This document shows, in pieces, positions 6,902 through 21,834 of a stretch of 21,834 nt of DNA. The number at the start of each line of letters is the position of its first letter. Positions within the stretch are counted from its first letter, which is position 1. The position numbers and the translations under genes are program-made. Under the pieces are notes generated by a model. It made no database searches. It had not been told where the DNA came from and saw only the letters and a list, made by a program, of their open reading frames with translations. This DNA comes from an uncultured Acidobacteriota bacterium (GTDB lineage Bacteria; Acidobacteriota; Thermoanaerobaculia; UBA5066; DATFVB01), in NCBI GenBank assembly GCA_963813155.1, contig CAWEYG010000008.1, forward strand, positions 1-21,834, written 5' to 3'.

Positions 6902-6974
6902 GCGCCCCGCGTCCAGCCCCACGCTACTTATCCGGCCTTCGCTCGAGGGGTGGGGGCTCCAACCCCTGAGCGAG
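6902..6974 (-). repeat. Inverted partial copy (D) of the structured intergenic repeat family
   Basis: The reverse complement ctcgctcaggggttggagcccccacccctcgagcgaaggccgg...tggggctggacgcggggcgc aligns with about 11477-11550, and its first part with about 13130-13172. Confidence 0.75.
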
Positions 6975-7243: not shown

Positions 7244-7602
7244 GGGGGCGAAACGGTTTCGACGGGGATGCCTGGTCGGAACGTCGCATGCCGAGGTTCA
7301 CTCGCCTCGTAAAAAAGGGTGAAAAAAATAGTTGCGAACAGCAACCTCGCACTGGCTGCCTAATTTAGTTTAGCGTCAGCCACGTCCTTCCCGGAGCGCG
7401 CCCGCCGCGCTGGAAAAGGGCGCCGCAAATGTGGGCTCATCCGGTAGGGTCCCCCGGCCCTGCAGGAGACATCAATTCGGGGTAGGTTCGGCGCGTTTGG
7501 TTCCTCTTTGAGCGCCGGATCGAGATCAAAGAGGAACTGAGCATGGAGTGGCGCTTCGATTCACTTCTTCGGACGCGGGTTCGACTCCCGCCGCCTCCAC
7601 CA
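7244..7602 (+). ncRNA. ssrA: tmRNA
   Basis: 5' GGGGGCGAAACGGTTTCGACGGGG. The 3' T-arm and acceptor end read GCGGGTTCGACTCCCGCCGCCTCCACCA. The tag ORF at 7334-7363 encodes ANSNLALAA-stop. Length is 359 nt. Confidence 0.97.
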
Positions 7603-7769
7603 AATTTCGCTCCACTTGAAAATCCCCCAAGCCCCCTCGGGCTCCACAATCGTGGTAAGGCGAATGGCCAACGTATTGAATTCATTGCGTCGTTTGAGAC
7701 TTGCTTCCCGACCTCCACCTTCATCCTCCGTACATCTCGGTGTGGACAGAATCGGAGGATGGTTGGAGA

Positions 7770-9032
7770 GTGAGACCCGCTCGCGTCCTGCTGACTGCCG
7801 CGATCCTCCTCGCGGGGGCCGGGGTCGCCATCCTGCGTCATCGGACACTGCTCGCGGCCCGGGATCAGAAGCGCCTCGCCGCGGCAAGGGAAGGAGCAGC
7901 GAAATTCGAGCGCCGCCAACTGGTCGCCAGGGAACTTCGCAATGTCGGGTCTGCTGCGCGGCCGTTGGACTTTGCCCTGCGAACTCCGCCCTCGTCCGTC
8001 TTTCTTCCGAATGAAGAGAAACTCCACGCTCTGGCTGTTCCCGGAACGCGCGCCCTGCGCGTGGGTGACAAGGTCATTCAGCTCGTGGAGCTTCGCGGCT
8101 GGCTGCGATTCGTCGATTCCGCCTGCAAGGCGAGCGATCCCGCCTGGTATTACCTGCTCGAACCGGATCTGGCCTGGAGCGACACAGTGGGCTTGCGGCC
8201 GAGCGACATCCTGCGGGTCGGCAACATTGCCGGCCTCGGAGATCGCCGTGGGGGAACTTCGCCCTGGCAAATCGAAAGTCGACCCCTCATCCGGATCGAA
8301 TTCGGAGGCTGGGACGAACAGAAGCTTCGGGGTTCACCGCCCGACGACTGGCGAGCCCGGGGTGCCTTCGGATGTCCCAACGTCTCCTTTGCTTTTGATC
8401 CGCTTCATCCCGTTCCCGGGGGGCCGCGGCTTGCGCCGGGTCAGTACATCCGAGTTGTCGGATCGCTCGTTACCGACGCTCCCCACGCAACGAAGGCCAC
8501 CGCCGGCGTGTGGCTCGTCCGAAATCTCGGCCTCGCGGTAGACCCGGAACACGTCATTCATGCCTGCGAGAGCGCATGGAGCGAAGGGGGAGAGGAAAAC
8601 GCAGGCAACCCTGCCCGCTGGACGGAGATCCATCCTCCCGACCTGATCGAGCCTCTTCCGGCTCGGGAACCGTCGGAAACGGTGATCGGCGTGGCCCTCT
8701 CCAGACCGGACGCGGCCCTTTCCGGACCGGCAGAGCCGATGGAGTTCTCGCTCGCGCCCCCCGGACCGCGCCCGGCCTGGGCTCGAGGTATCCGAGTTGT
8801 GGAAACGATTCTCCATGCCTGCCGGGGATCCGCCTTCGCGCGTTGCCTCGCTGCGTTCCACCTCGAGGAATCCAAAGGCCTGATCTCTGTTCGAATCGAC
8901 CCGGAGTCGGTGAGTGCAGACAGGTTTGCGGCAATCTTTCGAGTCTCCTGGAGCCCCGAGGCGGATTCCTGGCGGGTCGAGAGGTCGGCAAACCCAGACC
9001 CGTTATCGCACGCCAAACTGCTCGGCCTATGA
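7770..9032 (+). CDS. Hypothetical exported/membrane-anchored protein (420 aa)
   Basis: GGAG RBS before the GTG, an N-terminal hydrophobic anchor, internal YIRVVGSLVTDAPH and RWTEIHPPD segments, and an ATGA overlap with the next gene. Confidence 0.7.
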   Translation: MRPARVLLTAAILLAGAGVAILRHRTLLAARDQKRLAAAREGAAKFERRQLVARELRNVGSAARPLDFALRTPPSSVFLPNEEKLHALAVPGTRALRVGDKVIQLVELRGWLRFVDSACKASDPAWYYLLEPDLAWSDTVGLRPSDILRVGNIAGLGDRRGGTSPWQIESRPLIRIEFGGWDEQKLRGSPPDDWRARGAFGCPNVSFAFDPLHPVPGGPRLAPGQYIRVVGSLVTDAPHATKATAGVWLVRNLGLAVDPEHVIHACESAWSEGGEENAGNPARWTEIHPPDLIEPLPAREPSETVIGVALSRPDAALSGPAEPMEFSLAPPGPRPAWARGIRVVETILHACRGSAFARCLAAFHLEESKGLISVRIDPESVSADRFAAIFRVSWSPEADSWRVERSANPDPLSHAKLLGL

Positions 9033-10281
9033 GCCGTGATCCGCCGCAGACTCGCCGCCCGACTACGACAAGCGCCTCTTTACTTTCAGTCCCGCCTCAT
9101 TCTTCGCGGATCTCGATTCGCGCGGCGAGAGCTCTCTGGGTCCTGCTCGGCATCGCCGCGAGCGTCCATGTGCTCGTATCTCCGGAACGACACAATCTGT
9201 GGCCGGTCTTTCGGAAGGGAGCGCTGGGTTGGTGGGGGGGCGGATTCTCTACGAGGGCCCGGATTACTTTCGTTATAGCCCCGTCTTCGCGGCGCTGCTC
9301 GCGCCTTTTGCGGCGCTCCCGGGGCCGCTCGGGAACATCCTCTTCGATGTCCTGGGCCTGGCGCTTCTGTTTCACGCAATCCGCCGGCTCGCGCGCACGG
9401 TATTTCCCGAACCCGTCCTGAGTCGGAACGAACCCGCGGTGCTCGTGCTGAGCCTTGTGGGCGTCGTTCGTTCAATATGGTCGTCGCAGGCGCACACGTG
9501 GACCGCGGCGGTCATTTTTCTCGCGGCCGTCGCCCTGGTGGAGCGACGATGGTGGTTGGCGGCCTTCCTCCTGGCGCTCAGCGTGCACCTCAAGCTCGCT
9601 CCGATCGTGCTGGCCGGTGTCGTCGCGGTCCTCTGGCCCAGGAAGATGAGCTGGCGATTTGCCATCGCTCTCGTCGCGCTCGCGCTGTTGCCATTTCTCA
9701 ACGGGCAACCCGGGCCGGTCGTCGGAATGTACCGGGATTGTCAGGCGCGGTTGCGGGAGTTGACGGCCCTGCGATTGCCCGGTGTGCGGGATGTCCTGCA
9801 TGTCTTCGAATCCCTCCACGTGGCGCTGCCGCCCGGGGCCTATCGGGCGATTCAAGCGCTCGGCGGACTCCTCGTCGTCGGATGGGCCTGGCGGCTGCAA
9901 CGGCGGGAGGTGCCTGCGGAATGGCTGGTGAGCGGCAGCTTCGCGGTAACGATCGCTTACATGCTCGCGTTGGGGCCGGCCGTCGAGTTCGTGCAGTTCC
10001 CGCTCCTCGCACCCTGGGTCAGCGCGGCGGTGCTCGCCGCAAGGCCTCGATCCCTCGAGCGCCGCGCCCTCGCCGTTCTCTACGCGATGACGATGGTCGC
10101 CGGATTTGGGGCGGTGGAAGATCTGCTCGGCGGGCTGATCCGGTCCAGGGCCCCGGAATCGTTGATCACGCTGGGTGCGATCGCGTTTGGCGTGTGGGTC
10201 GTTCTGAAATGGGGGCGTGCGGCGCCCTCCCGCGACGCGAAGGCCTTCGGAGAAATGGAAAGGGCTTTCGCGAAGACATGA
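9029..10281 (+). pseudogene. GT87/DUF2029 family membrane glycosyltransferase, frameshifted at G7 run 9234-9240
   Basis: The frame from ATG 9029 gives a TM helix and ..VFRKGALGWWG. A second frame continues RILYEGPDYFRYSPVFA, SSQ, HLKLAP and many TM helices. One extra G (G8) fuses the two frames. Confidence 0.75.
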
Positions 10282-10610
10282 AAACGAGGCTCGTGGTCGT
10301 CGTCGTGTTCGCTGTCCTGGCGGGGACATGGGCGTTCCTTCGAACTCGGGAAGCGCCCGTGCCGCGGAAAGAAACGCGCCCGGTGACGATTGCGACAGAT
10401 CTTTCCATCGTCGCGGGTTGCAGGATGGTGAGAAGAATCAATCTTTCCGGCAGAATTGGGACGGATGGAGTCGCGAAAGACGAGGCGGATCGCGACGCCA
10501 ACCTCGAAGCGATCGCCGCGGATGCCGGCGGCGACACCGTGCTGATTCTCGAGAGAACACCGAACTTCGTTCGAGGGACGATCTATCGATGCGGAGCCCC
10601 GGCGCATTGA
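10278..10610 (+). CDS. Small exported protein, DUF4156-like
   Basis: ATGA overlap, signal anchor, and the pattern VAGC..LEAIAADAGGDTVLI..GTIYRC with two Cys. Confidence 0.65.
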   Translation: MKTRLVVVVVFAVLAGTWAFLRTREAPVPRKETRPVTIATDLSIVAGCRMVRRINLSGRIGTDGVAKDEADRDANLEAIAADAGGDTVLILERTPNFVRGTIYRCGAPAH

Positions 10611-10618
10611 CCCGCCCG

Positions 10619-10637
10619 CGACCTCGCCGAGCGAGCC
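10619..10637 (+). repeat. 19-bp motif CGACCTCGCCGAGCGAGCC, copy 1 of 3
   Basis: Identical copies at 11780-11798 and 12584-12602. Confidence 0.9.
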
Positions 10638-10644
10638 AGCATTC

Positions 10645-10665
10645 CATGGCATAATTCATGGCATG
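10645..10665 (+). promoter_or_regulatory. Extended -10 promoter and putative RHH operator
   Basis: TGgCATAAT (10647-10655) lies 7 nt before the ATG, with no SD. CATGGCAT occurs twice across the promoter and start. Confidence 0.55.
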
Positions 10666-10923
10666 AAACGTGCCCTTCGGAATTTCCACCTGCCCCTTCC
10701 TGCCCCGATATACGACGAGCTGCGGGAAGAGGCCGAACGCGAGGGACGCCCCGCGACGAGCCTCGCCCGCGAGGCGATCGAAGCCTGGCTGGCGCTCCGC
10801 CGCAAGATGGAGCTCCAGGAAGAGATCGCCGCATACGCTGCGGATCGTCGAGGGACCGAGGCCGACCTCGATCGGCCGCTCGAGCGCGCGGCCGTCCGGC
10901 ACCTTCGAAAGGGGCGGCGGTGA
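10663..10923 (+). CDS. Ribbon-helix-helix (CopG-like) antitoxin
   Basis: NFHLPLPAPIYDELREEAEREGRPATSLAREAIEAWL fits the RHH pattern, followed by an acidic tail. It sits directly upstream of the MazF-like toxin. Confidence 0.8.
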   Translation: MKRALRNFHLPLPAPIYDELREEAEREGRPATSLAREAIEAWLALRRKMELQEEIAAYAADRRGTEADLDRPLERAAVRHLRKGRR

Positions 10924-10933
10924 GGCTGCGGGC

Positions 10934-11278
10934 TTGAAGCGGGGCGACGTTTTCTGGGCGGATCTCGAGCCGCGATCGGGATCGGAGCAGCGCGGCCGGC
11001 GTCCCGTCGTCGTCGTCTCGCATGACGCTTTCAACGAAACGTCCGGATGGCAGTCGGTGATCGTCGTTCCGCTCTCCACCTCGCCGGCTCAGGCCGGCCG
11101 CGGGCCGACGGCCGTTCCCGTTCCCGCGGGCGCCGGGGGGCTCAAACGGGCCGGCGTCGCGCTCTGCCACCAGGTGACAACCCTGGACCGGGCGAAGCTC
11201 ACGGAACGCGTCGGGACGCTTTCGGAGAATGCGCTCGAAGCCCTCAGCGCGGGCCTCGCGGCCGCGCTGTCGTTGTAG
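10934..11278 (+). CDS. mazF: PemK/MazF family toxin
   Basis: KRGDVFWADLEPRSGSEQRGRRPVVVVS, VIVVPLST and ALCHQVTTLDRAKL. TTG start is inferred. Confidence 0.92.
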   Translation: MKRGDVFWADLEPRSGSEQRGRRPVVVVSHDAFNETSGWQSVIVVPLSTSPAQAGRGPTAVPVPAGAGGLKRAGVALCHQVTTLDRAKLTERVGTLSENALEALSAGLAAALSL

Positions 11279-11280
11279 GG

Positions 11281-11608
11281 GCTTCGCTCGATCCGCCCGA
11301 GCCTAGCGCCATCGCAGGCGTGCGAGCGGGTCCTGTCGCGGGACTCGCTCCTCTTTTCCGCTCGCCGCGAGCCTGACGACTTTGCTACACCGGCGTTGCG
11401 AACGGCAAAAGGGAGTCTCGCCCCGCGCCACCCGCCCTTCTGGCGCCGGCGCCTTTGGCCCGGACTCGCGCGAACCTTCGCTCAGGGCTTGGGCCCCAAC
11501 ACCCGCGAGCGAGGCCGGGAGCTGCCCGATGGGGCTGGGCCGCGGGGCGCGGTCGCCTCCCGCTGCGGCGAGGGATGTGGTCGCGAGAGAGGGAATCGGT
11601 TGTCTGAG
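11281..11608 (+). repeat. Structured intergenic repeat, copy A
   Basis: Colinear blocks shared with 12850-13240: gcttcgctc..gagcctagc, ggtcctgtc, cttttccgctcgc, gactttgctac, cggcaaaaggg, ctttggcccggactc, accttcgctcaggg, acacccgcgagcga, gagggaatcgg and ttgtctgag. Confidence 0.9.
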
Positions 11609-11779
11609 GCGCCGTCTCGTGCGCCGACCCAAGGTGGAGGCTCGAAGACCGACGAGTGCGAAACCGCGAGGACCTACCCTGTTCACACCGCAGCGGTCGG
11701 CGCAAGGCGACGAGTTCCGATTCCCGATGGAGCGAGCCACATGCCGAAGCGTGAGGCAACCCGCGCGGGGCTTTCGCCT

Positions 11780-11798
11780 CGACCTCGCCGAGCGAGCC
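11780..11798 (+). repeat. 19-bp motif, copy 2 of 3
   Basis: CGACCTCGCCGAGCGAGCC exact match. Confidence 0.9.
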
Positions 11799-11812
11799 TC
11801 GCGCGATGGCTG

Positions 11813-11855
11813 GTGGGATATCCCACTTGACTCATATCCCACTCAGCGCGAGAAT
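11813..11855 (+). promoter_or_regulatory. Sigma70 promoter with palindromic operator
   Basis: TTGACT (11827-32), 17 nt, GAGAAT (11850-55), with the ATG 6 nt later. Perfect palindrome GTGGGATATCCCAC (11813-26) and a half-site ATATCCCAC (11834-42). Confidence 0.75.
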
Positions 11856-11861
11856 CGCTTC

Positions 11862-12158
11862 ATGAGCCAGGCCACTTCGTTCAAGTACGTCGCCCGGGTC
11901 CGCCCGGACTCGAAGGGACGCGTCACGCTCGGACGCCTGGGGAAAGACATCAGCAGTTATCGCGTGGCGGTGGATGGCGAGGGTCGAGTCCTTCTCGAGC
12001 CCTTCGTCGAAGTTCCCGCGCGCGAGCAATGGCTTTATGAAAACCCCGAGGCGTACTCGAGCGTCCGGCGGGGTCTTGCCCAGGCGGGGAAGGGTGAAAC
12101 GGCTTCGCTCGGCTCGTTCGCCAGGCCCGCACCGAAGGCGCGCAAGCCCCGCAAGTGA
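11862..12158 (+). CDS. AbrB/MazE-like antitoxin
   Basis: RPDSKGRVTL..DGEGRVLLEP swapped-hairpin pattern and EQWLYENPEAYSSVRRGLAQA tail. GTGA overlap with the toxin. Confidence 0.75.
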   Translation: MSQATSFKYVARVRPDSKGRVTLGRLGKDISSYRVAVDGEGRVLLEPFVEVPAREQWLYENPEAYSSVRRGLAQAGKGETASLGSFARPAPKARKPRK

Positions 12159-12451
12159 CCTTTCGCCTTCAGTTCACGAAGGAAGCGAAAGAGAACCTTC
12201 GCAAACTCGAGTCGGACGGCGGACTCTCCAAGCGCCTCAAGGCGGTGAGAAAGGCTCTCGGTCTCCTCGAATCGAACCCGCGCCACCCGGGGCTTCGGAC
12301 TCACGAGTTCACGTCGCTTCCCGGGCCCCGTGGAGAAAGGGTCTTCGAGGCCTACGCAGAGCAGGCGACTCCCGCTGCTTACAGGATCTTCTGGATTTAC
12401 GGCCCCGGAAAGGGTGAGATCACGATAGTCGCGATTACCCCGCACCCCTGA
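12155..12451 (+). CDS. RelE/ParE superfamily toxin
   Basis: FRLQFTKEAKENLRKL, NPRHPGLRTH, YRIFWIYG and ITIVAITPHP. 98 aa and basic. Confidence 0.75.
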   Translation: MTFRLQFTKEAKENLRKLESDGGLSKRLKAVRKALGLLESNPRHPGLRTHEFTSLPGPRGERVFEAYAEQATPAAYRIFWIYGPGKGEITIVAITPHP

Positions 12452-12602
12452 GAACCTGCTCCGGGGTCGGGCTCCAACACCCGCGAGCGAAGACCTGGGA
12501 GCGGCGTGGGTGTTCAGGCGGGGCGCCGGTGCCTCCCGCTCCTGCGGCGAGGGAGGTACTGGCGCCCCGCCTGGTTCCTCCCGCGACCTCGCCGAGCGAG
12601 CC
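12452..12602 (+). repeat. Partial structured repeat, copy C, ending in 19-bp motif copy 3
   Basis: gaacct..gctc..ccaacacccgcgagcga..gcggggcgc..gcctcccgct..gcggcgaggga aligns to about 11472-11575. It contains a 23-bp stem at 12515-12537/12551-12573. Confidence 0.8.
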
Positions 12603-12636
12603 TTACCGCCCCAACGCGCTCGGCTAAAATACTCCG

Positions 12637-12843
12637 ATGTCCTCCACCCCTCCTCCGACCTGCTCCGACTGCGCGAAAGGCGGAGTCGTGTACCTGTTCG
12701 AGGGCAACCCCTATTGCCCCTCGTGCCTCGCAAAGCGGCGCCCCCCTCTGTCGCACCAGGGCGTCGAGAGAAGGAAATCGCAGAAGGCCGGCCTGTGGCG
12801 GCGCCGCGAGACGGACTCCGTGAAAAAACCGGGCGGCGCGTAA
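12637..12843 (+). CDS. Putative CxxC-CxxC zinc-binding microprotein (68 aa)
   Basis: CSDC-x14-CPSC followed by a basic tail. TAAAAT lies 6 nt upstream of the ATG, and the ORF fits between repeat copies C and B. Confidence 0.55.
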   Translation: MSSTPPPTCSDCAKGGVVYLFEGNPYCPSCLAKRRPPLSHQGVERRKSQKAGLWRRRETDSVKKPGGA

Positions 12844-12849
12844 GGTTGA

Positions 12850-13240
12850 GCTTCGCTCAGTCCGCTCGAGCCTAGCCCCAGCGCCGGCGAGCGAGCGTTG
12901 ACGCCGTGCTTGAGCGCCGGAGAGATTGCTCGGGCGGCGAGGGTCCTGTCATGGGAGTCGCCCCGCTTTTCCGCTCGCTGCAAATTTGAGGACTTTGCTA
13001 CGACTCCGCGCCGCGAGCGGCAAAAGGGGGTCTCCTCCCATGCCACCCTCCGACCCTCGCACGTCGGCATCCGGGACCCCCCTCCGACGCTCGCACCAAG
13101 GCGTCTTTGGCCCGGACTCTCGCGGACCTTCGCTCAGGGGGTTGGGCCCCCACACCCGCGAGCGAAGGCCGGGAGCGGAGTGGGGCCTGCTCAGCGCGCG
13201 ACGCTGGCTGTCGCGAGTGAGGGAATCGGCCTTGTCTGAG
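12850..13240 (+). repeat. Structured intergenic repeat, copy B
   Basis: Colinear with copy A, with extra inserts near 12898-12940 and 13051-13098. Confidence 0.9.
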
Positions 13241-13249
13241 CTGGAGTTC

Positions 13250-13278
13250 TTGACTGTATGTATCCCATGAGATACAGT
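13250..13278 (+). promoter_or_regulatory. Sigma70 promoter with inverted-repeat operator
   Basis: TTGACT (13250-55), 17 nt, TACAGT (13273-78), with the GTG 5 nt later. Inverted repeats ACTGTAT/ATACAGT and TGTATC/GATACA. Confidence 0.75.
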
Positions 13279-13283
13279 ACGCC

Positions 13284-13574
13284 GTGATTGAGATCCGGCA
13301 GACGGATCTCTACGCCCGCTGGTTCGAAGGGCTTCGCGATGTCCGGGCGAAGGCAAGGATTCTGGTCCGAGTCCGTCGTCTCTCGCTCGGCAATCCCGGA
13401 GACGTCCGGCCGGTAGGCGAAGGGGTATCGGAGATGCGCATCGATTACGGTCCCGGCTACCGCGTGTACTTCACCTCGCGCGGCGAACGGATCGTCATTC
13501 TCCTCGCCGGAGGCGACAAGGCGAGTCAGACCAGCGACATTGAGACTGCTCGCGACCTGGCCCGATTCCTATAG
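13284..13574 (+). CDS. RelE/HigB-type addiction module killer protein (HI1419-like)
   Basis: RLSLGNPGDVRPVGEGVSEMRIDYGPGYRVYF and ILLAGGDKASQTSDI. Confidence 0.92.
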   Translation: MIEIRQTDLYARWFEGLRDVRAKARILVRVRRLSLGNPGDVRPVGEGVSEMRIDYGPGYRVYFTSRGERIVILLAGGDKASQTSDIETARDLARFL

Positions 13575-13583
13575 GGAGGCAGC

Positions 13584-13880
13584 ATGGCGAAGACAAAGAC
13601 GAGAGCGTGGGACGCCGCCGACCACCTGGGAAGCGAGGCGGAGATCACGGCGTACTTCGAGGCGGCGCTCGAAGACGGGGATCCCGCCGTCGTGACGGCC
13701 GCTCTGGGAGACATCGCCCGCGCCGTCGGTATGACGAAGATCGCCCACGACACCGGCCTCGGGCGCGAAAGCCTCTACAAGGCGCTGTCACCGGACGGAA
13801 ACCCTGAACTCGCCACAGTGCTCCGCGTCATCCGTGCCCTCGGCCTCCAGCTCCACGCAGCTCCGGCCAATAACCCCTGA
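13584..13880 (+). CDS. Addiction module antidote, HTH (HI1420-like)
   Basis: WDAADHL, ALGDIARAVGMTKIAHDTGLGRESLYKALSPDGNP and a GGAGG RBS. Confidence 0.92.
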   Translation: MAKTKTRAWDAADHLGSEAEITAYFEAALEDGDPAVVTAALGDIARAVGMTKIAHDTGLGRESLYKALSPDGNPELATVLRVIRALGLQLHAAPANNP

Positions 13881-13953
13881 GCGAAGCCCCGACGCGGCCG
13901 GGCCACCCTCGCCGGCACATGCTAAAATCGCCGGCAAAACAGAAGGAGCGAAA

Positions 13954-14421
13954 ATGGAAAAGCGTCTCGGAATCCTGCTTGGTACGGTTCTTCTGCTCGG
14001 CTTCTCCGCGACCGTGCTCGCGAAAGGCAAAGGGTCGAATCCTCAGTTCCCGGCGCCGGCTGCGGCGGGTTATTACGTCAACGGGTGCACGGGCGAGATC
14101 TTCATCGAATGGGAGCCGGTCGTCAGCAACGTCAACGGAAGCTCGCCGACGAAATACGCAATCCAGATTGTCCAGACACTCCGAAGCGGCTGCCCGGACG
14201 GCCCGATCGTCGGAACGAACGTCACGAATTTCACCGCTCCCGGCAACACCACGGAATTCGCCACGCCGCCCGGAACGCTCCAGATCTTCACGTTTCCCTT
14301 CGTCTGCGACCCGGATGACGTCGTCATCCTGGTCAAGGCCTTGAACCCGCCCAGCAAGTCGCAGAACAACCCGCAGGCGATCGCCGAATTCGAGGCGGTC
14401 GGCGGCGGGCCCTGCATCTGA
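13954..14421 (+). CDS. Secreted protein, possibly fibronectin type III-like (155 aa)
   Basis: GAAGGAG RBS, TGcTAAAAT at 13920-28, and a signal peptide ending VLA. IEWEP..KYAIQI..ILVKALN pattern with four Cys. Confidence 0.7.
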   Translation: MEKRLGILLGTVLLLGFSATVLAKGKGSNPQFPAPAAAGYYVNGCTGEIFIEWEPVVSNVNGSSPTKYAIQIVQTLRSGCPDGPIVGTNVTNFTAPGNTTEFATPPGTLQIFTFPFVCDPDDVVILVKALNPPSKSQNNPQAIAEFEAVGGGPCI

Positions 14422-14450
14422 CCGAACGACTCCCGGACCCGGTTTGACCT

Positions 14451-14483
14451 GCCCCCTTCGGCCCGCGCCGGAGGGGGCTTTTT
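14451..14483 (+). terminator. Rho-independent terminator
   Basis: Stem GCCCCCTTCGGC-ccgc-GCCGGAGGGGGC followed by TTTTT. Confidence 0.85.
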
Positions 14484-14550
14484 CGTGCCGGGCTTCTCCG
14501 CGTTTTCTCTGAGCGCTTCTCTCGCCAGCAGCGGCTGGCGGCGGGTGAGG

Positions 14551-14640
14551 GCATAGCGAAGGCGGATGCTTGCCGCGCCGTAGCCTGGGAATGAAGCGAC
14601 ATGTCGCGCCGAAGCTCGGGGAGCGAAGGCGGAAGGCGGG
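14551..14640. repeat. REP-like cluster (GCC G(A/T)AGC ... AGCGAAGGCGG type)
   Basis: AGCGAAGGCGGA occurs twice, alongside cgcgccgtagc and cgcgccgaagc. Confidence 0.45.
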
Positions 14641-14706
14641 TCCCCAAAGCTCCGGGGGCGCGATGGGTATGCCGAGGAGTTAGACTCGGCCATCAACCCA
14701 CGACGA

Positions 14707-14949
14707 ATGCTCTCGCGGCTGTTGGAAGGCCACAACCGGAATGTCGATTTCGCCGACTTTACGCGGCTGGTGGAGGCTTTTGGATTCCGGCTCGATCGAA
14801 CCCGCGGAAGCCATCACTTCTACGTTCACGTGAATGCACCGGAGGTGATGAACCTCCAATCGGTACAGGGTGAAGCGAAGCCGTACCAGATTCGCCAATT
14901 TCTAAAGCTCGTTGAGCGTTACAATCTCGCCTTGGAGGACCGGGAATGA
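14707..14949 (+). CDS. hicA: HicA family toxin
   Basis: FGFRLDRTRGSHHFYVH (GSH motif) and GEAKPYQIRQF. The start could be an in-frame ATC at 14692. Confidence 0.88.
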   Translation: MLSRLLEGHNRNVDFADFTRLVEAFGFRLDRTRGSHHFYVHVNAPEVMNLQSVQGEAKPYQIRQFLKLVERYNLALEDRE

Positions 14950-15167
14950 AGGACTACCACGTAAACGTGTTCTGGAGCGACGAAGACGGGTGCTACGTCG
15001 CGGACATTCCCGATCTCGTCGCTTGCTCGGCTTTTGGAGGCACTGCCCAGGAGGCCCTCGCGGAAGTGGAAAAAGCAAAGGAAGGTTGGCTCGAGACGGC
15101 GAAGGCCAACGGCAAACCGATTCCTGAGCCTCGCTACCGGCCGGCGATCTACCAGGTCGGGCGGTAG
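14946..15167 (+). CDS. hicB: HicB family antitoxin (short, no DNA-binding domain)
   Basis: YHVNVFWSDEDGCYVADIPDL..CSAFG..EAL..WLETAKANGKPIPEP, with an ATGA overlap. Confidence 0.9.
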   Translation: MKDYHVNVFWSDEDGCYVADIPDLVACSAFGGTAQEALAEVEKAKEGWLETAKANGKPIPEPRYRPAIYQVGR

Positions 15168-15182
15168 GAGTCGCTTCGCTCC

Positions 15183-15253
15183 TTCACGGCTTCACGAGTT
15201 TCACGTCTTCACGCCGGTGCCCCTCACGTCTTCACGCACTTCACGTCTTCACG
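15183..15253 (+). repeat. Array of eight (T/C)TCACG units, mostly 8-9 nt period
   Basis: Units at 15183, 15191, 15200, 15208, 15223, 15231, 15240 and 15248. Confidence 0.85.
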
Positions 15254-15494
15254 CCCGGAAATTCGCGCAATCGAGCAATCGCAAATCGAGCAATGTCTTC
15301 CATGTCCCCAAACCCCCGGAGGCGCGATGGGAAGAGGTCACGCCGAAGCACGACGGCGAGGCGGGGGCGGATGGGAAGGGATGGGAACCGTGGCTAAAAG
15401 GCTACCGGCTCGCGTCTGGTAGGATTTCGGCAACCGCAATGGAAACGATGCGACGGCGTTAATGGAATGAACGTCTCAGGGGCGCGGTGCTCGC

Positions 15495-16957
15495 ATGTTT
15501 GAACAGGCCTTCAGGAACATCGACGACGTCCTCCGGAAGGAGGCCGGGTGCACCACCGAGCTCGATTACACCGAGCAGACCTCGTGGCTGCTGTTCCTGA
15601 AATATCTCGACGGGCTCGAGCAGGACAAGGCCGACGAAGCCGAGCTTGACGGCAAGAAATACGCCTACATTCTCGACAAGCCCTATCGCTGGGAAACGTG
15701 GGCCGCGCCAAAGGGCAAGGACGGCAAGCTCGACCACAACAAGGCGCTGACCGGCGACGACCTCCGCGATTTCGTCAACCAGCAAGCTCTTTCCCTACCT
15801 GCACGGCTTCAAGCAGCGCGCCACCGGACCGAACACCATCGAATACAAGATCGGCGAGATCTTTGGCGAGATCAAGAACAAGATTCAGAGCGGCTACAAC
15901 CTGCGCGAGATCATCGACCACATCGACGAACTGCGCTTCCGCTCGCAGACCGAAAAGCACGAGCTCTCGCACCTCTACGAAGCCAAGATCAAGAACATGG
16001 GCAACGCCGGCCGCAACGGCGGCGAGTATTACACGCCGCGCCCGCTCATCCGCGCCATCATCCAGGTGGTCCAGCCGAAGATCGGCGAGCGCATCTACGA
16101 CGGTGCGTGCGGCTCGGCGGGCTTCTTGTGCGAATCGTTCGATTATCTTGAAGAGCCAAGCGGCAAGCTCACGACCAAGGACCTGACGACGCTTCAGACG
16201 CGCACCTTCTACGGCAAGGAAAAGAAGTCCCTCGCCTACGTCATCGCGATCATGAACATGATTCTGCATGGCATCGAAGCGCCGAACATCATCCACACCA
16301 ACACGCTCACGGAGAACCTCGCCGACATTCAGGAGAAGGACCGCTATGACGTCGTGCTGGCCAATCCGCCCTTCGGCGGCAAGGAGCGGCACCGAGGTGC
16401 AGCAGAACTTCCCCATCCGCACCGGCGAGACCGCGTTCCTGTTCCTCCAGCACTTCATCAAGATCCTGAAGGCCGGAGGGCGCGGCGGCATCGTCATCAA
16501 GAACACGTTTCTCTCGAACACCGACAACGCCTCCGTGAGCCTGCGCAAGCTGCTGCTGGAGAGCTGCAACCTGCACACCGTGCTCGACTGCCCCGGCGGC
16601 ACATTCCAGGGCGCGGGCGTGAAGACCGTGGTGCTCTTCTTCGAGAAGGGCACGCAAACGCGCAAGAGTCTGGTACTACCAGCTCGACCCCGGCCGCAAT
16701 CTGGGCAAGACCAATCCACTCAACGACGACGACCTCGCCGAGTTCGTGAAACTGCAAGAAGACCTTTGCCGACTCGCCCAAGAGCTGGAGCGTGGACGCC
16801 AAGAGCGATTGACCCGGCGACCTTCGATCTTTCCGTGAAGAACCCGAACGGCGGCGAGGAAGTCGCGCACCGCAGCCCGGAGGACATCATGGACGAGATC
16901 GCCGCGCTGGACGCCGAGAGCGCGGAAGTGCTGGGGAACATAAAGGCGTTGCTATGA
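15495..16957 (+). pseudogene. hsdM: Type I R-M N6-adenine methyltransferase subunit, five +1 frameshifts as sequenced
   Basis: GEYYTPR, IYDGACGSAGFL and LANPPFGG motifs. The frame shifts by +1 near 15783, 16390, 16667, 16757 and 16807. Confidence 0.88.
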
Positions 16958-18258
16958 CAACAGCTTCGGCGCAAGTAACCGAGACCGGGGGAAGGCGCGC
17001 GACGACACGGCACATTCCGCCGAAACTTGCGCTTGCTGTGGGAATGCCAGCAGATCGCCCTCGGGAGGGTTGGCAATGGGCGCCGTTGGTTTCGTTGGCG
17101 AGGCTTGAATCGGGTCACACCCCGAGCAGACGGCATCCCGAGTATTGGGGAGGAAGCATCCCGTGGATCGGCATCGCTGACGCGAAGGCGAACCATGGGA
17201 AGCGCATCGACGATACGCTGGAGACGACCAACGAACTCGGCATCAAGAACTCGTCAGCGCGTGTCCTACCGAAAGACACCGTTTGCCTCTCGCGGACCGC
17301 TTCGGTTGGGTACGTCGTCGTAATGGGGCGACCAATGGCAACTAGCCAGGATTTTGTGAATTGGGTTCCTTCGGGGGAGCTCGATCCGAGGTTCTTGAAG
17401 TACCTCTTTATTGCGGAGGGTGACGATTTACTTCGCTTTGCGAGCGGCGCAATTCACCAAACGATCTATTTTCCCGAAGCGAAAGCATTTCATATTTGCC
17501 TACCCTCGCTCGCCGAACAGCGGCGGATCGTCGGCCTCCTCGACGAAGCTTTCGCCGGCGTCGCCGCCGCGAAGGCTAACGCCGAAAAGAACCTCCACAA
17601 TGCCAGCGCCCTCTTCGAGAGCCGTCTGCAAAGCGCCTTTACGCAGCGCGGCAAGGGGTGGGTCGAGAAGACGTTGGGAGAGCTTGCAACGTTCCGAAAC
17701 GGAGTCAATTACACGAAGGACAGCAGGGGCGACCGTATCAAGATCGTCGGTGTGGGGAATTTTCAGAAGCACTTTTCCGCTCCGCTGGACGACCTCGCCA
17801 CGGTCACAATTGACGGCAAGCTAAGCGAGCGTGACTCGTTGAAGCGGGGCGACATTCTCGCGGTCCGCTCAAACGGTAACGTTGACCTGATTGGTCGATG
17901 CGTTCTCGTGGGAGAAGTGACAGAGAGGATTTCCCATTCAGGGTTTACGATCCGCATTAGGCTGTCTAACGCCAGCGTCCTTCCGAAGTACGTCTGCTAT
18001 TTCATGAAATCTGCTGGTTCGAGAAAACTGCTCACCGAAGGCGGCGTAGGAACAAACATCAAGAGCCTAAACCAGGGGATGCTTTCGGCCTTGTCGATTC
18101 CGTTCCCACCTATTGCGGCGCAGAGCGTGTTGATAGAGCAACTAGAAAGCCTCTCGGAAGAGACTCAGCGCCTCGTTAGGATTTATGAGCGGAAGAGTGC
18201 CGGACTCGAGGCACTGAGGAAATCGCTGCTGCACCAAGCTTTCACCGGAGAGCTGTAA
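16954..18258 (+). CDS. hsdS: Type I R-M specificity subunit
   Basis: Two TRDs, SGHTPS..YWGGSIPW, LPSLAEQRRIV, PFPPIAAQ and C-terminal LRKSLLHQAFTGEL. ATGA overlap with hsdM. Confidence 0.93.
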   Translation: MTTASAQVTETGGRRATTRHIPPKLALAVGMPADRPREGWQWAPLVSLARLESGHTPSRRHPEYWGGSIPWIGIADAKANHGKRIDDTLETTNELGIKNSSARVLPKDTVCLSRTASVGYVVVMGRPMATSQDFVNWVPSGELDPRFLKYLFIAEGDDLLRFASGAIHQTIYFPEAKAFHICLPSLAEQRRIVGLLDEAFAGVAAAKANAEKNLHNASALFESRLQSAFTQRGKGWVEKTLGELATFRNGVNYTKDSRGDRIKIVGVGNFQKHFSAPLDDLATVTIDGKLSERDSLKRGDILAVRSNGNVDLIGRCVLVGEVTERISHSGFTIRIRLSNASVLPKYVCYFMKSAGSRKLLTEGGVGTNIKSLNQGMLSALSIPFPPIAAQSVLIEQLESLSEETQRLVRIYERKSAGLEALRKSLLHQAFTGEL

Positions 18259-18262
18259 TCTT

Positions 18263-18489
18263 GTGAGGAACTACTACCGCGTCATGCTGGGCCCGAAGAG
18301 TGTCCACGCCGAGGAGTGTTTCGCCGGCAACTTCATCGGCACAGACTTCGGCATCAACCAGGACCTCACCAGGAAACTGCCAGAGGAATGGCGGGCGTTC
18401 AACAAGGAGTTCATCCCGATCTTTCTGGCCGCACACCCTGACAAGACCAAGATCGGTGCGGGGCTGGCATGCGCGGCTTTGTGGACGGT
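18263..18489 (+). pseudogene. 5' fragment of an R-M-associated NucS/DUF91-domain endonuclease gene
   Basis: MRNYYRVMLG..NFIGTDFGINQDL..FNKEFIP..AGLACAALWTV matches my recollection of the N-terminus of this family. Similarity and high-GC3 codon usage stop after LWTV. Confidence 0.6.
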
Positions 18490-18560
18490 AAGAGATAGCC
18501 TGATAATGGCACATGGACTGTCGCTCCGCGGGTCCCGAGTTCGCGGTTCGGTAGAGTGTC

Positions 18561-19367
18561 ATGATCAAGCCAGAGTCTGGAAACCTCTTCGGGATGCTCG
18601 CAACGCCCGCGGTCACTGTGACCCTTGACGTGGCTCGGCGTCAAGTCGCCTCCGTCATCGGAGCGGATGTCAAGCCTGAGGGCGTGATCCTTTCCGATCT
18701 CGAGATGTTCGGCCTTCCAGCGTGGGTGGAATTCGATAACCTGAGACTATTTCCAACCAGCTATGAATTCCACGCTACGGGCTCTGTTGTTTACCATGCG
18801 CACTGGCCTCCAAACAAAGGGATTGAGATCGATCGGCGGCTTGGCCTGCTGTCAGAGCGCTCTCGGATAATTCGGGCAAGGCTTTCGCCCGGGACTCTCA
18901 GTGCGACAAGGGGGCAACACCGGAAACCGACTCAAAACCAGGTAATGGGAGAATCGGCGAGCGTCTCCGCTGCTAGGATCCAGACCTCCGGTGCGCTGCG
19001 CATCCCCGAGGGTCTACCTGTAACGTGGCATTGGTGCCACCTTGTGGCGGTGTCACTCTGGCCTGCGAAACGCGCCCAACAGCGCCGAAATATCTTACTT
19101 GGGACAGCGGCCGTCAACGGTCAGATGATCTGCATTGAGCGCGCACTTAGGTGGTACGTTCGTCGATATGAGGCCACGGTCTCACTTGAAGTGACCTGTA
19201 CATTTCTTGCGGAGACTCCGCTCGGCCTGCGCCTACGCTACCAACTTCATGACAGGCGAACGGGTGGGCTCCACCGTGAGTACTTCGATCTCTTCGGACA
19301 CAATCCTGCAGCCGTATCGGAGGGTGAGGAGCTGGCAAGGCGAGTCGAGTGCGCTCTCCGAAAGTGA
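18561..19367 (+). CDS. Putative His-Me finger (DNA/RNA non-specific type) endonuclease
   Basis: WHWCHLVAVSL..Q..NILLGTAAVNGQMICIE resembles the H..N..N..E pattern of beta-beta-alpha nucleases. Confidence 0.55.
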   Translation: MIKPESGNLFGMLATPAVTVTLDVARRQVASVIGADVKPEGVILSDLEMFGLPAWVEFDNLRLFPTSYEFHATGSVVYHAHWPPNKGIEIDRRLGLLSERSRIIRARLSPGTLSATRGQHRKPTQNQVMGESASVSAARIQTSGALRIPEGLPVTWHWCHLVAVSLWPAKRAQQRRNILLGTAAVNGQMICIERALRWYVRRYEATVSLEVTCTFLAETPLGLRLRYQLHDRRTGGLHREYFDLFGHNPAAVSEGEELARRVECALRK

Positions 19368-19405
19368 AGAGTCCTCTGACCCTGATTGGCTACTGGAATC
19401 GGTCC

Positions 19406-19480
19406 CTGGGGACGGTCTTGTTTTCGTGTATTACGGAGCGTGAAGACGTGAACACGTGAAGGCGCGAGTGCGTGAAACTC
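19406..19480. repeat. 39-bp direct repeat copy 1 followed by CGTGAA array
   Basis: CTGGGGACGGTCTTGTTTTCGTGTATTACGGAGCGTGAA (19406-19444) has one mismatch to 21286-21324. CGTGAA units occur at 19439, 19447, 19455 and 19471. Confidence 0.88.
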
Positions 19481-19481
19481 C

Positions 19482-20180
19482 CTACCCCAATCCCGCCGCC
19501 AGGCTGAGGACCATCCACTCCTCCTCTGCCGCGGCTCGAAGGATCTCGAGATTTGGAGCGGAACGAAGAGTCCACACGAGCCAGTTGAGGCGGCCACCCG
19601 TCGATCGGCGAACCGCTCGGGTGAATCGAAACATTCTCTTTTTGAGTGAGAAGCTCGTCGCGAGTCCGGCAAACGGGCCGGAAATGTCGGTAAACGCCGT
19701 CGCCAGCGCCGGACGGATCCCCGGGACAGCGAAGGTTCGCTCCAGCAGGAACGGGTCATCGGCCCATGCGCGAAACGTTTCCGCATCTTCGACGTTCGGA
19801 AGACGGACTTCGGGCGGACCGAACGGTCGCAGCGCGTGCGTCAGCAGCCCTCCGCCCTCGGCTCGCCTCTGAATCACGAAACGTCCCGGCAAGAGCGTCG
19901 CGACGGAGATCGTCAGAACGGGAATGTTTCCCGTAGCCACATATCTCAACCGCGTCTCGCGCCCGCGCCACTCGCCGACGATACCGGTTTCCATGGTCAA
20001 CCAGCGTCTCGGTTTCAGGATCCAGCCGAGGGAGCGCGCGATCTCCTCGAGGTCCCGGCGACTTTTTCGGGACGATCGAAAGCTGCGAATGGTGCTCCAG
20101 ATTTTGAACGCGAGGATCAAGAGGACGACCCAGTAGCGTTCCAGGGCTCGGGCGAGTCCGTGAAGGGTTTCGATTCGCAA
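19482..20180 (-). CDS. Hypothetical membrane-anchored protein
   Basis: 232-aa ORF with a TM segment YWVVLLILAFKIW followed by a basic stretch. The start is uncertain. Confidence 0.6.
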   Translation of the reverse strand: MRIETLHGLARALERYWVVLLILAFKIWSTIRSFRSSRKSRRDLEEIARSLGWILKPRRWLTMETGIVGEWRGRETRLRYVATGNIPVLTISVATLLPGRFVIQRRAEGGGLLTHALRPFGPPEVRLPNVEDAETFRAWADDPFLLERTFAVPGIRPALATAFTDISGPFAGLATSFSLKKRMFRFTRAVRRSTGGRLNWLVWTLRSAPNLEILRAAAEEEWMVLSLAAGLG

Positions 20181-20214
20181 AGTTTCTCACATCAAAGGGT
20201 GACGAGGGCGATTC

Positions 20215-21251
20215 TTTGATTTCACAAACGAAGTGCAACACCTTCTGATGGGGGTGCTGCGATGGGGCGCCAATACGGGCAGCTTGGGATCCAGGAACGG
20301 TGTGAGATTGCCCGGCGTCGCTGCGCCGGGCAATCGATCCGGCAAATCGCGGCAGGTCTGGATCGCGCGCCATCGAGCGTTGCTCGGGAGCTGAAGCGCA
20401 ACAGCACGACGTCGGGCGGGTATCAGCCCGTTTACGCCGGTCAACAGGCCAAGGCACGGCGCTGGACCGGCAGCAAACTGTTGCGTCGGCCCGACCTCCA
20501 GGCTCTGGTCTTGGACCGCCTCAGTCAGGGATGGTCGCCGCAGGAGGTCGCCGGCAGGCTCGCGCGCGAAGAAGGCCGGCCGGTTGTCAGTCATGAAACC
20601 ATTTATCGCTTCATCGCCGCTCAGATCGCTCGCACCAAGGATTACTCCTGGCGGCTCTACCTCCCCCGCGGCAAGAGCAAGCGCGGCCGACGCTCCCCAA
20701 AACACGGCAACTCGACCGTGCACATCCAAAACCGTGTCCCCATTGCTCTGCGACCCCCAGAAGCCAGTGACCGAACCAACCCTGGCCATTGGGAGGCCGA
20801 TCTCATGCTCTTTGCCACCTATGGGCAGGCCGTCTTGGCCCTTCACGAACGTACTTCTCGACTGACGGTTATCCTGCGTCAACAAAGCAAGGCCGCCGCA
20901 CCTCTTGTCTCTACCATCGAAAATCTTCTGCGACCTCTTCCCCCGTCCCTGCGCCGCACCGTGACCTTCGACAACGGAACCGAGTTCGCTTTCCATCACC
21001 GCCTGGGGAAAACCCTCGGAGTCGAAACATTCTTTTGCGATCCACGGTCTCCTTGGCAGAAGGGCGGAGTCGAAAATGCCATCGGCCGGCTTCGTCGCTT
21101 CCTCCCCCGAAAAACCGACCTGGCAGTCCTTCCCACGAGCCAAATCCTCCGCCTTGCCCAACTCTACAATCACACACCTAGGAAATGCCTTGACTTCCAA
21201 ACCCCGGCCGAGGTCTTCTCTCATCTGTTGCACTTCAAATGTGAATCCACC
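20215..21251 (+). mobile_element. IS30 family insertion sequence
   Basis: Imperfect 26-bp terminal IRs (19/26): tttgatttcacaaacGAAGTGCAACA at 20215-20240 and TGTTGCACTTCaaatgtgaatccacc at 21226-21251. The exact tips are uncertain and no TSD is seen. Confidence 0.8.
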
Positions 21252-21272
21252 TCCCCGCGTTCGCGGGAATGA
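20262..21272 (+). CDS. IS30 family transposase
   Basis: HTH SIRQIAAGLDRAPSSVARELKRN, WSPQEV, VSHETIY, and the DDE motifs GHWEAD, TFDNGTEF and SPWQKGGVEN. Confidence 0.96.
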   Translation: MGRQYGQLGIQERCEIARRRCAGQSIRQIAAGLDRAPSSVARELKRNSTTSGGYQPVYAGQQAKARRWTGSKLLRRPDLQALVLDRLSQGWSPQEVAGRLAREEGRPVVSHETIYRFIAAQIARTKDYSWRLYLPRGKSKRGRRSPKHGNSTVHIQNRVPIALRPPEASDRTNPGHWEADLMLFATYGQAVLALHERTSRLTVILRQQSKAAAPLVSTIENLLRPLPPSLRRTVTFDNGTEFAFHHRLGKTLGVETFFCDPRSPWQKGGVENAIGRLRRFLPRKTDLAVLPTSQILRLAQLYNHTPRKCLDFQTPAEVFSHLLHFKCESTSPRSRE

Positions 21273-21273
21273 C
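21252..21273 (-). repeat. REP-like palindrome GTCATTCCCGCGAACGCGGGGA
   Basis: Hairpin CCCGCG-tt-CGCGGG with a GTCAT foot, abutting the IS30 right end. Confidence 0.65.
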
Positions 21274-21285
21274 GGGGAAGGGGAT

Positions 21286-21324
21286 CTGGGGACGGTCTTG
21301 TTTTTGTGTATTACGGAGCGTGAA
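21286..21324. repeat. 39-bp direct repeat copy 2
   Basis: 38/39 identical to 19406-19444. Confidence 0.88.
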
Positions 21325-21378
21325 CACGCGAGCAGATCGCCACGGCCTTTCCGGCCTCGCGATGATGGAGCCGTCGTC

Positions 21379-21465
21379 TAGCTTGAGTTGGTAGAGATCG
21401 TCCGCGGTGATCTTTCGATCGCGAAGGCGGTCAAACAGGTGGTTGCGAAGCGCCGGTGGAAGGCC
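21379..21465 (-). pseudogene. Remnant of a small partner gene downstream of the RHH gene
   Basis: Protein-like GLPPALRNHLFDRLRDRKITADDLYQLKL with no start codon, decaying thereafter. Confidence 0.4.
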
Positions 21466-21471
21466 GGGACT

Positions 21472-21729: not shown

Positions 21730-21834
21730 TGTGGGATAGTACACCATAGTGAACCAAGTTGCACCATCAAGCGAGAAGTCGCGAGCCGGAGGTTGAAAGT
21801 CGAAAGGCGAGAGTCACGAGTCACTTCTTCGGAA

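Follow-up and report, generated by a model that had tools for sequence, protein, structure and literature searches.

The 21,834-nucleotide stretch analysed here (the window; contig CAWEYG010000008.1 of the uncultured Acidobacteriota assembly GCA_963813155.1) contains two related hairpin-forming repeats, both within a tract of toxin-antitoxin and restriction genes downstream of a transfer-messenger RNA (tmRNA) gene. Copy A spans positions 11326-11435 (110 nt) and copy B positions 12939-13050 (112 nt), and both the + and the - strand of each copy fold as one long hairpin. The hairpins and the features that surround them are as follows.

11326..11435, + strand: hairpin copy A, with base module GCGGGT-CCTGTC...GCC-ACCCGC and loop motif GACTTTGCTAC
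12939..13050, + strand: hairpin copy B, of the second subfamily, with GAGGGT...ACCCTC and loop side GCTACGACTCCGCGCC
11281..11325, + strand: left arm of the outer palindromic module enclosing copy A (GCTTCGCTCG...GCCTAGCGCC...), 85% identical to 12850-12897
11436..11520, + strand: right arm of this outer module and small hairpin TCGCTCAGGG...CCCGCGAGCGA (11478-11520; fold of the small hairpin -16.4 kcal/mol)
12850..12938, + strand: left arm of the outer module of copy B, with an extra 41-nt stretch (12898-12938) in common with a copy on contig C7
13051..13172, + strand: right side of copy B, with a 49-nt extra stretch, the right arm of the outer module (13100-13129) and a small hairpin
13130-13172, + strand: this small hairpin to the right of copy B, TCGCTCAGGGGG...CGCGAGCGAAGG, fold -21.0 kcal/mol
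12463..12498, + strand: partial third copy of the small ...ACACCCGCGAGCGAAG module, separating two cassette-like gene units
6931..6973, - strand: inverted small TCGCTCAGGG...GAGCGAAGG hairpin module, upstream of the tmRNA gene
10934..11278, + strand: MazF/PemK-type toxin gene (PF02452, 1.7e-29), its stop codon 47 nt upstream of copy A
12637..12843, + strand: small open reading frame (ORF) without a family match, ending 95 nt upstream of copy B

Copy A has the outer stem GCGGGT/ACCCGC, the second stem CGCGGG/CCCGCG and the third stem CTCC/GGAG; the counterparts in copy B are GAGGGT/ACCCTC, CATGGG/CCCATG and CCCC/GGGG. The inner stem CTTTTCCGCTCGC lies opposite GCGA(A/G)CGG-C-AAAAG with an identical bulged C in both copies, and the loop motif GACTTTGCTAC occupies 11378-11388 in copy A and 12991-13001 in copy B. 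A preliminary description of this DNA had reported these stems, the bulged C and the loop motif, and all of them were present at those positions. The copies show four two-sided differences, with pairing kept in each. Folding with RNA parameters gave minimum free energies on the + strand of -47.7 kcal/mol for copy A (z -1.9; 10 of 200 shuffles equally stable) and -56.6 kcal/mol for copy B (z -4.5; 0 of 200), and on the - strand of -61.9 kcal/mol (z -4.6) and -60.9 kcal/mol (z -5.5). The resemblance of the two copies reaches past the hairpins, extending over approximately 11281-11612 and 12850-13245 with a mean column identity of 78% and several insertions. Because the changes that distinguish B from A are common to relatives of B (C5:135474, C7:6071 and C6:47931), they represent few events. 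Covariation judged from copies A and B only would be weak evidence.

The genome to which the window belongs, that of a soil bacterium (G000; 3.81 Mb, 23 contigs, 90.8% complete) holds 56 copies of the 110-nt unit detectable by blastn, in both orientations and placed singly over 14 contigs. A covariance model constructed from 51 copies of two species found 54 matches in G000, 46 in its sister species G001 (78% complete, with approximately 77-93% nucleotide identity to G000 in flanking DNA) and at least 55 in G002, a member of the same genus (99% complete; unpublished, as is G008). None of the conclusions rests on these two unpublished genomes. Two subfamilies were recognized that differ in the upper stem and the loop, and copy B falls in a small group with the same compensatory changes and the same flanks. 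In contigs from four soil metagenome runs, the summed depth on the hairpin bins was 427-764 in two runs versus approximately 7-9 on unique flanks. The borders of the unit are fixed by the points at which these contigs diverge from the window, namely 11325/11326 and 11435/11437 for copy A and 12941 and 13048 for copy B, where the ends are loose. Within these contigs the joints were only between the two repeat copies or to other loci, with no clean empty allele.

The great majority of copies are intergenic. According to gene calls that were crude (the caller was seeded on Pfam-verified genes), 50 of the 56 copies lie outside genes and the six overlaps are all at gene ends. Copies were found between convergent genes 21 times (expected approximately 8-10), between tandem genes 30 times (approximately 32-35) and between divergent genes five times (approximately 13-14), a distribution with p 8e-7 by count and 2e-4 by length. 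Their orientation relative to neighbouring genes was evenly divided (12 same, 14 opposite), and no association was detected with either GC skew (Fisher p 0.51) or gene-strand bias (p 1.0). Housekeeping genes, for example those for ClpP and MsrA, are among the neighbours of the dispersed copies.

Comparison of the two sister species indicated that copies are present at some matching sites and absent from others. Among 21 G001 copies examined, seven had a G000 copy at the matching site, twelve had none and two were unresolved. Four of the empty sites are short and clean, and in two of these the extra piece comprises the whole outer module together with the hairpin (approximately 210-250 nt). The copies of G000 and G001 intermingle by similarity. 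A and B are not a special local pair but two of 56 dispersed copies, in a family whose members occupy some matching sites and are missing from others when species are compared. At least four G001 copies correspond to empty sites on contig C3 of G000.

No target-site duplication was detected: flanking direct repeats of 3 bp were found at 0 of 56 copies and of 4 bp at one of 56, not above flank-swapped controls. The DNA immediately outside GCGGGT...ACCCGC is often complementary, with a sequence specific to the locus (for example gagactg/cagtctc and cgcccga/tcgggcg). Flanks with at least four contiguous pairs surround 15 of the 56 copies versus 3.5% of random places, and for the 44 'solo' copies that lie outside the common outer module the flank pairing energy was -15.9 kcal/mol versus -11.5 kcal/mol in flank-swapped controls (p 6e-7). 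Approximately 12 copies, including copy A, occupy the centre of a second, larger palindromic module, and small TTCGCTC...GAGCGAA hairpins are frequent neighbours. REP units of other families also sit inside palindromes, as described in the excerpt of PMC3733652 consulted.

To evaluate the structure, an alignment of 51 copies from two species (A2) was compared with shuffled controls. On this alignment RNAalifold gave preference to a local hairpin of 9 bp within the 5' end, and the long-hairpin structure was therefore supplied by hand. With this structure, 88.6% of the cells were paired versus 86.1% after shuffling and two-sided changes were present at 15 pairs versus 8.9, and none of 500 shuffles reached the observed values. 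The signal derives largely from few subfamily-level events; pair 36-105, for instance, is UA in 26 sequences and CG in 14. Relatives of 109-115 nt were identified in the sister genus (G003 and G004) that retain the ends GCGGGTCCTGTC...GCGCCACCCGC and a related loop, GAGGA...GTTAC. Their stems are wholly different in sequence and still paired (-58 to -81 kcal/mol), with two-sided changes at 13 of 30 predicted pairs among 16 copies. Other families of the class Thermoanaerobaculia also carry hairpins with the same ends.

Far outside this class, too, hairpins are enclosed by these ends. The exact pattern GCGGGTCCTGTC-N75-105-GCGCCACCCGC, with ends of 12 and 11 nt, was found in at least 119 stretches from metagenome-assembled genomes of many phyla, and those among the matches listed are labelled as more than 10 phyla. 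The labels include Acidobacteriota/Vicinamibacterales, Nitrospirota, Solirubrobacterales, Acidimicrobiia, Krumholzibacteriia, Elusimicrobiota, Latescibacteria, Aminicenantes, Rokuibacteriota, Methylomirabilis, Omnitrophota, Gammaproteobacteria, Levybacteria, Uhrbacteria and Saccharibacteria. The covariance model of the genus produced 66 matches in 78 loci at E 0.01 or better. In an alignment of 65 distinct cross-phylum sequences, fitted to the model structure and with ends fixed by the search pattern, 87.7% of the cells were paired versus 69.7% after shuffling and at most 48.8% after sliding. Two-sided changes were present at 35 of 44 pairs, amounting to 388 cells versus 131, and none of 500 shuffles was as high. 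Two inner motifs outside the search pattern, G[TC][GC]CTC[GA] and [CT]TGCG[CG][GT], which were picked after inspection of the sequences, occur in 52 and 42 of 82 elements versus 4.4 and 3.8 after shuffling.

Throughout the family, whose members range from 95 to 150 nt, the base module is nearly invariant. It consists of the GCGGGT/ACCCGC helix followed by an internal loop that is asymmetric, its 5' side reading CCTGTC and its 3' side GCC-A. On top of the base is a long interrupted stem whose sequence is free while pairing is kept; several internal loops are conserved across phyla, and the terminal loop is variable. The loop motif, which the preliminary description had regarded as a conserved feature, proved to be specific to the genus, partly kept in the sister genus and lost in other phyla, and the deep conservation resides in the base of the hairpin. 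The proposal of the preliminary description that structure is kept by compensatory change was borne out in the genus, sister-genus and cross-phylum alignments (51, 16 and 65 sequences), the covariation signal persisting as more copies were added. The decisive covariation is that of the distant relatives, in the sister genus and across phyla, and not that of the genus copies. Wobble pairs favour the - strand in the genus (133 versus 45 cells) and the + strand across phyla (94 versus 60). We read these opposite biases as the absence of a consistent RNA strand, and a role as RNA of one strand is not favoured.

Small genomes also carry the element. Genomes of 0.7-1.4 Mb have three to eight copies each, one genome having none. 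In the Saccharibacteria genome G304 (loci L303 and L287), two copies lie in frame, one inside the gene for the Obg GTPase and one inside a peptidase M1 gene; strand and reading frame are the same for both, and they encode ...AWGTP...AVGE.A..GP.... Compared with its G000 counterpart, Obg is longer by approximately 20 residues owing to the copy. In another phylum, two inverted copies enclose 590 nt (L173) in which only broken reading frames are present.

What is observed, then, is a repeat dispersed in many copies, placed between genes with enrichment downstream of them, present or absent between species, without target-site duplication, frequently nested in other palindromes, covarying in its stems and invariant in its base across phyla. 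By analogy with known hairpin repeats, these properties make it likely that copies A and B belong to a non-autonomous foldback repeat of the REP/REPIN/tagged-REP type that is handled as single-stranded DNA (ssDNA) by an enzyme reading the invariant base. In such a model the element would be copied or moved as an ssDNA hairpin by a trans-acting enzyme with specificity for both structure and sequence. This enzyme would read the base module, much as RAYTs act on REPs and Ssn nucleases on CGTC/TGTC-tagged hairpins. The stems would only need to pair, and compensatory changes would follow from that. The comparison with REP-type hairpins drawn in the preliminary description was apt in this respect, given the conserved asymmetric loop and bulge near the base. 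In G000, neither a Y1 (RAYT) transposase nor a small GIY-YIG protein could be detected for this role.

These two enzyme classes define the closest alternatives. The element might be an unusually long CGTC/TGTC-tagged REP with an Ssn-related motif, on which a small GIY-YIG Ssn nuclease reads TGTC 5' of the palindrome and C (CCA) after it, in ssDNA. In the excerpt of Di Nocera et al. (2013, PMC3733652), the CGTC of tagged REPs is often TGTC, the CCA tail is unpaired, a dedicated transposase is absent and some units lie inside palindromes or genes. The excerpt of Chenal et al. (2025, PMC11893778) describes strand-specific ssDNA cutting by Ssn at hairpins with a CGTC tag, the C after the palindrome being most crucial for binding and three upstream bases mattering for cutting, and a loop replaceable by a longer paired extension. 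Consistent with this, in nearly all copies the long stem is immediately preceded by TGTC and immediately followed by GCCA, element positions 7-12 read CCTGTC almost invariably, with the G and last C of the tag paired in predicted folds, 23 of 56 copies have the A after TGTC that the published motif needs, and in the relative G004 a small GIY-YIG gene is surrounded by a canonical TGTCATTCCCGCGAAAGCGGGAATCCAG system. Nevertheless, the published SRM pattern HGTCWY...RNCYNB matches 0 of 56 copies and is not enriched in the genome (38 matches versus 29 on the reversed genome). TGTC is followed by GC in 31 copies, AC in 17, AT in six and GG in one, with one copy giving no match, so that 32 of 56 have G where the pattern needs A or T. 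The stem is approximately 45 bp rather than 8-9 bp, and the conserved outer helix encloses both tag and tail, with conserved sequence continuing upstream of the tag; the Neisseria cut falls in variable flank. Moreover, G000 has no small, Ssn-like GIY-YIG gene, its one PF01541 match being in a UvrC-sized frame of 727 aa; G304 likewise has a UvrC-sized match only, and none of the small GIY-YIG genes of G001 (one), G003 (two) and G004 (six) has a family hairpin beside it, other repeats being found there. We consider this explanation unlikely. Still less probable, to a degree that leaves little room for it, is a REPIN whose RAYT is missing from the assemblies or acts from elsewhere. The architecture does fit REPINs, which according to the excerpt of Bertels and Rainey (2011, PMC3116915) have conserved ends, a less conserved spacer that still pairs, common compensatory changes and a hairpin that forms in ssDNA or mRNA. 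Target duplications are absent, Y1 transposases occur widely in the class, in 246 of 301 genomes, and G000 and G001 are incomplete at 90.8% and 78%. Against this, PF01797 has no match in G000, G001 or the 99% complete G002, each with approximately 50 copies, and G304 has eight near-identical copies without a Y1 match. The Y1 genes of G003, G004, G016, G028, G303 and G305-G307 have no family hairpin within 1.5 kb, and that of G004, which is RAYT-like with a DnaA-C-like tail, has its own unrelated terminal inverted repeats. A GTAG tag is absent from the ends, GTAG occurring only in the - strand loop of this genus and not being kept in other lineages, and there is no orientation bias with respect to GC skew.

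Two further explanations were considered. The hairpins could be structured RNA elements that act in cis to terminate transcripts, stabilise mRNA or bind proteins, in which case each would owe its persistence to selection at its locus and not to selfish spread. The enrichment downstream of genes and between convergent genes, the conservation of orthologous copies above their flanks, the internal loops kept across phyla and the strong covariation would all be expected of such elements. We regard this possibility as improbable, as orientation to neighbouring genes is random, the wobble bias of the genus is opposite to that across phyla, sister species differ in which sites carry a copy, near-identical copies occupy unrelated loci and some lie in frame inside essential genes. 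Nor is there a U-tract after the stem, or a match to a known RNA family: a scan of the window against Rfam 15 with E up to 1 gave nothing on the hairpins, in agreement with the preliminary description, and scans of the cross-phylum relatives (E up to 0.01 and 10) gave only sub-threshold matches on generic hairpins, to microRNA-precursor models and in four other weak cases. A and B could alternatively be attC-like sites marking gene cassettes, since they share one orientation and, downstream of the tmRNA gene, flank small same-strand units (MazEF, an unnamed pair, a small ORF and HigBA-like genes), and since the hairpin recalls attC in its general plan: its ends are conserved and paired, it has bulges and an unpaired spacer, and its top varies. 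Membership of attC, whose recognition features the bulged base and loop had been said to recall, fails, as RYYYAAC/GTTRRRY boxes are absent (one strand has the ends GCGGGTCC.../...CCACCCGC, the opposite strand GCGGGTGG.../...GGACCCGC). At least five cassette-like units have only two hairpins among them, the remaining 54 copies are scattered one by one and in either orientation, and in other hosts copies lie inside genes. No attC array was found, copies being single over the 14 contigs, and no search was aimed at an integron integrase. The probability of an attC-like site is close to negligible.

A foldback repeat handled as ssDNA thus accounts best for the dispersal and the invariant base, and several observations weigh against it. 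No mobilising enzyme was found, and the mechanism is consequently an analogy. The genes between close pairs of copies (MazE/Doc, DUF72, MsrA, ClpP, MOSC, TPR and unnamed ORFs) do not look like nucleases or transposases. Neither a transposition intermediate nor a population-level empty allele was seen, the population data being soil metagenome contigs only. The inserted stretch exceeds the 110-nt unit in some cases, and at 10% divergence the site differences between G000 and G001 could partly be deletions rather than insertions. Five orthologous pairs of G000 and G001 copies are 93.6-98.2% identical versus 77-93% in flanking DNA, and such outlasting of the flanks also fits a host function or gene conversion among copies. 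Contig C3 (1.05 Mb) contains two of the 56 copies, approximately 15 being expected from its length. Within the genus the covariation is real yet modest, and uncompensated changes occur at several stem positions (pair 25-117, for example, is broken in 10 of 51). Across phyla, 12 of the 78 loci have no model match at E 0.01 and some pattern matches may be chance; further caveats are the fixed ends and imposed structure of that alignment and the choice of inner motifs after inspection.

Other identities were tried and rejected. One of the weak Rfam matches was to the small signal recognition particle (SRP) model of Bacteroidales, at 15.8 bits versus a gathering score of 55.2. Identity with SRP RNA was rejected, as the true gene is single-copy elsewhere and the hairpins are without the conserved GGAA/AGCA domain. 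The SRP RNAs of the class (in G000, L280 1501-1600; also L279, L281-L283 and L323) start with GTTCGGGTCCTGTGCG, and the 10-mer CGGGTCCTGT is both the 5' side of the hairpin base and the 5' end of the SRP RNA of the class. Given this identity, it is conceivable, if doubtful, that the hairpin element mimics, or descends from, the closing helix of SRP RNA. A miniature inverted-repeat transposable element (MITE) of the DDE type was rejected, there being no duplication and no parent insertion sequence with matching ends; the search for a parent recovered six short orphan arm matches only, none of them paired at the distance of an insertion sequence. The ends of an IS110-like gene of G000 are unrelated to the hairpin, and its apparent loop-motif matches were spurious (GACTTTGCTAC occurs 43 times inside copies and once outside). 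The ends of the IS30-like element in the window are likewise unrelated. In the literature, the motif words matched only unrelated papers and no description of the hairpin family was found, subscription journals and supplements being outside the search.

Distinct repeat systems were observed at several of the genes considered above. At L314 of G004 (C1:3306191-3309412), a small GIY-YIG gene has several TGTCATTCCCGCGAAAGCGGGAATCCAG copies on both sides, which is nearly the Neisseria NTS sequence and corresponds to a canonical Ssn/SRM system. At L310, L311, L317, L319 and L321 (G001, G003 and G004), small GIY-YIG genes directly follow tRNA or tmRNA genes, with ...ATCCTCCTTCGCC.../...GGCGAAGGAGGAT... 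foldback repeats on either side. Inverted repeats GGGGTCAGATCTGT.TTATA (L111 1420-1470 and 2400-2490) flank the RAYT-like gene of G004, the downstream one duplicated, in an arrangement of the TIRYT type.

The remainder of the window contains further elements. The tmRNA gene at 7244-7602 (+ strand; 195 bits) encodes the tag ANSNLALAA, and it is followed by an island-like tract (7600-21834) with MazEF, an unnamed gene pair, HigBA-like genes, HicAB, type I restriction-modification genes and an IS30-like transposase. At 15495-16957, the gene for the type I methylase (an HsdM N-terminal domain and two N6_Mtase pieces) extends over three overlapping frames and is apparently frameshifted. Right after the HicB gene are two 35-nt direct repeats of TTCACG-type octamers (CCTTCACGGCTTCACGAGTTTCACGTCTTCACGCC; 15181-15255), with related words at 19417-19452. 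Direct repeats of 49 nt (19406-19454 and 21286-21334, 92% identical) bracket the segment with the IS30-like transposase (20262-21272). A sequence similar to their start, GGGGACGGTCTT...ATTACGGAGCG, lies upstream of the RAYT-like gene in G004 (L111 ~1310-1340). Between two gene units, at 12513-12575, lies a distinct near-perfect hairpin with 28-bp arms (-58.9 kcal/mol), to which Rfam gave a sub-threshold microRNA-model match. A different repeat family occupies 11613-11760; it has copies at C2:869242, C2:742382 and C1:490277, those at C2:869242 and C1:490277 being 120-700 nt from hairpin copies, and soil metagenome contigs match it too.

Small hairpin repeats shape the intergenic space of bacteria, and the known families point to dedicated ssDNA enzymes, namely RAYTs and the Ssn nucleases, the latter useful as tools. 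The present family keeps a 23-nt base module across many phyla, all above it varies, and it multiplies even in 0.7-Mb genomes. A bolder and rather doubtful proposal is that it constitutes a bacteria-wide foldback family, from Acidobacteriota to the candidate phyla radiation, in which the base would be recognised, for mobilisation or processing, by an activity other than RAYT or Ssn, either a new ssDNA enzyme or a universal host function. A new partner, if true, would add a further site- and structure-specific activity on ssDNA; if there is no partner, the family would exemplify how such elements persist on host functions alone. The covariance model is also of use in annotation for masking these repeats, which break assemblies and mimic structured RNAs.

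Among known systems, the family resembles tagged REPs and the NTS-Ssn system in its TGTC tag and C/CCA tail, its distribution across phyla, the lack of a dedicated transposase and its occurrence within palindromes and sometimes in frame in genes. It differs from tagged REPs in that the hairpin stem is approximately five times longer and interrupted by conserved internal loops, and in that the first stem pair is mostly G-C. With REPINs it has in common a dispersed, mostly extragenic hairpin of approximately 100 nt, vertical persistence in a lineage and copies that vary between close relatives. Unlike REPINs, the ends of the hairpin are not simple inverted copies of one REP, the base being asymmetric, and the base module is present in many phyla. 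Sites of the attC type act as folded single strands; unlike the family, they have AAC/GTT core boxes, arrays and a fixed orientation. Classical MITEs such as Correia and ERIC are, like the family, small, non-coding, palindromic, multi-copy and intergenic elements present or absent between relatives, and the family differs in having neither a target-site duplication nor a parent insertion sequence with matching ends. Rickettsia palindromic elements can be likened by description, being palindromes of 100-150 bp found in frame in genes, as are the two copies of G304, whereas the G000 copies are almost all intergenic; the elements are mentioned in the excerpt of PMC3733652. As a kind of small mobile DNA the element is familiar, and it is the base conserved across phyla that stands out.

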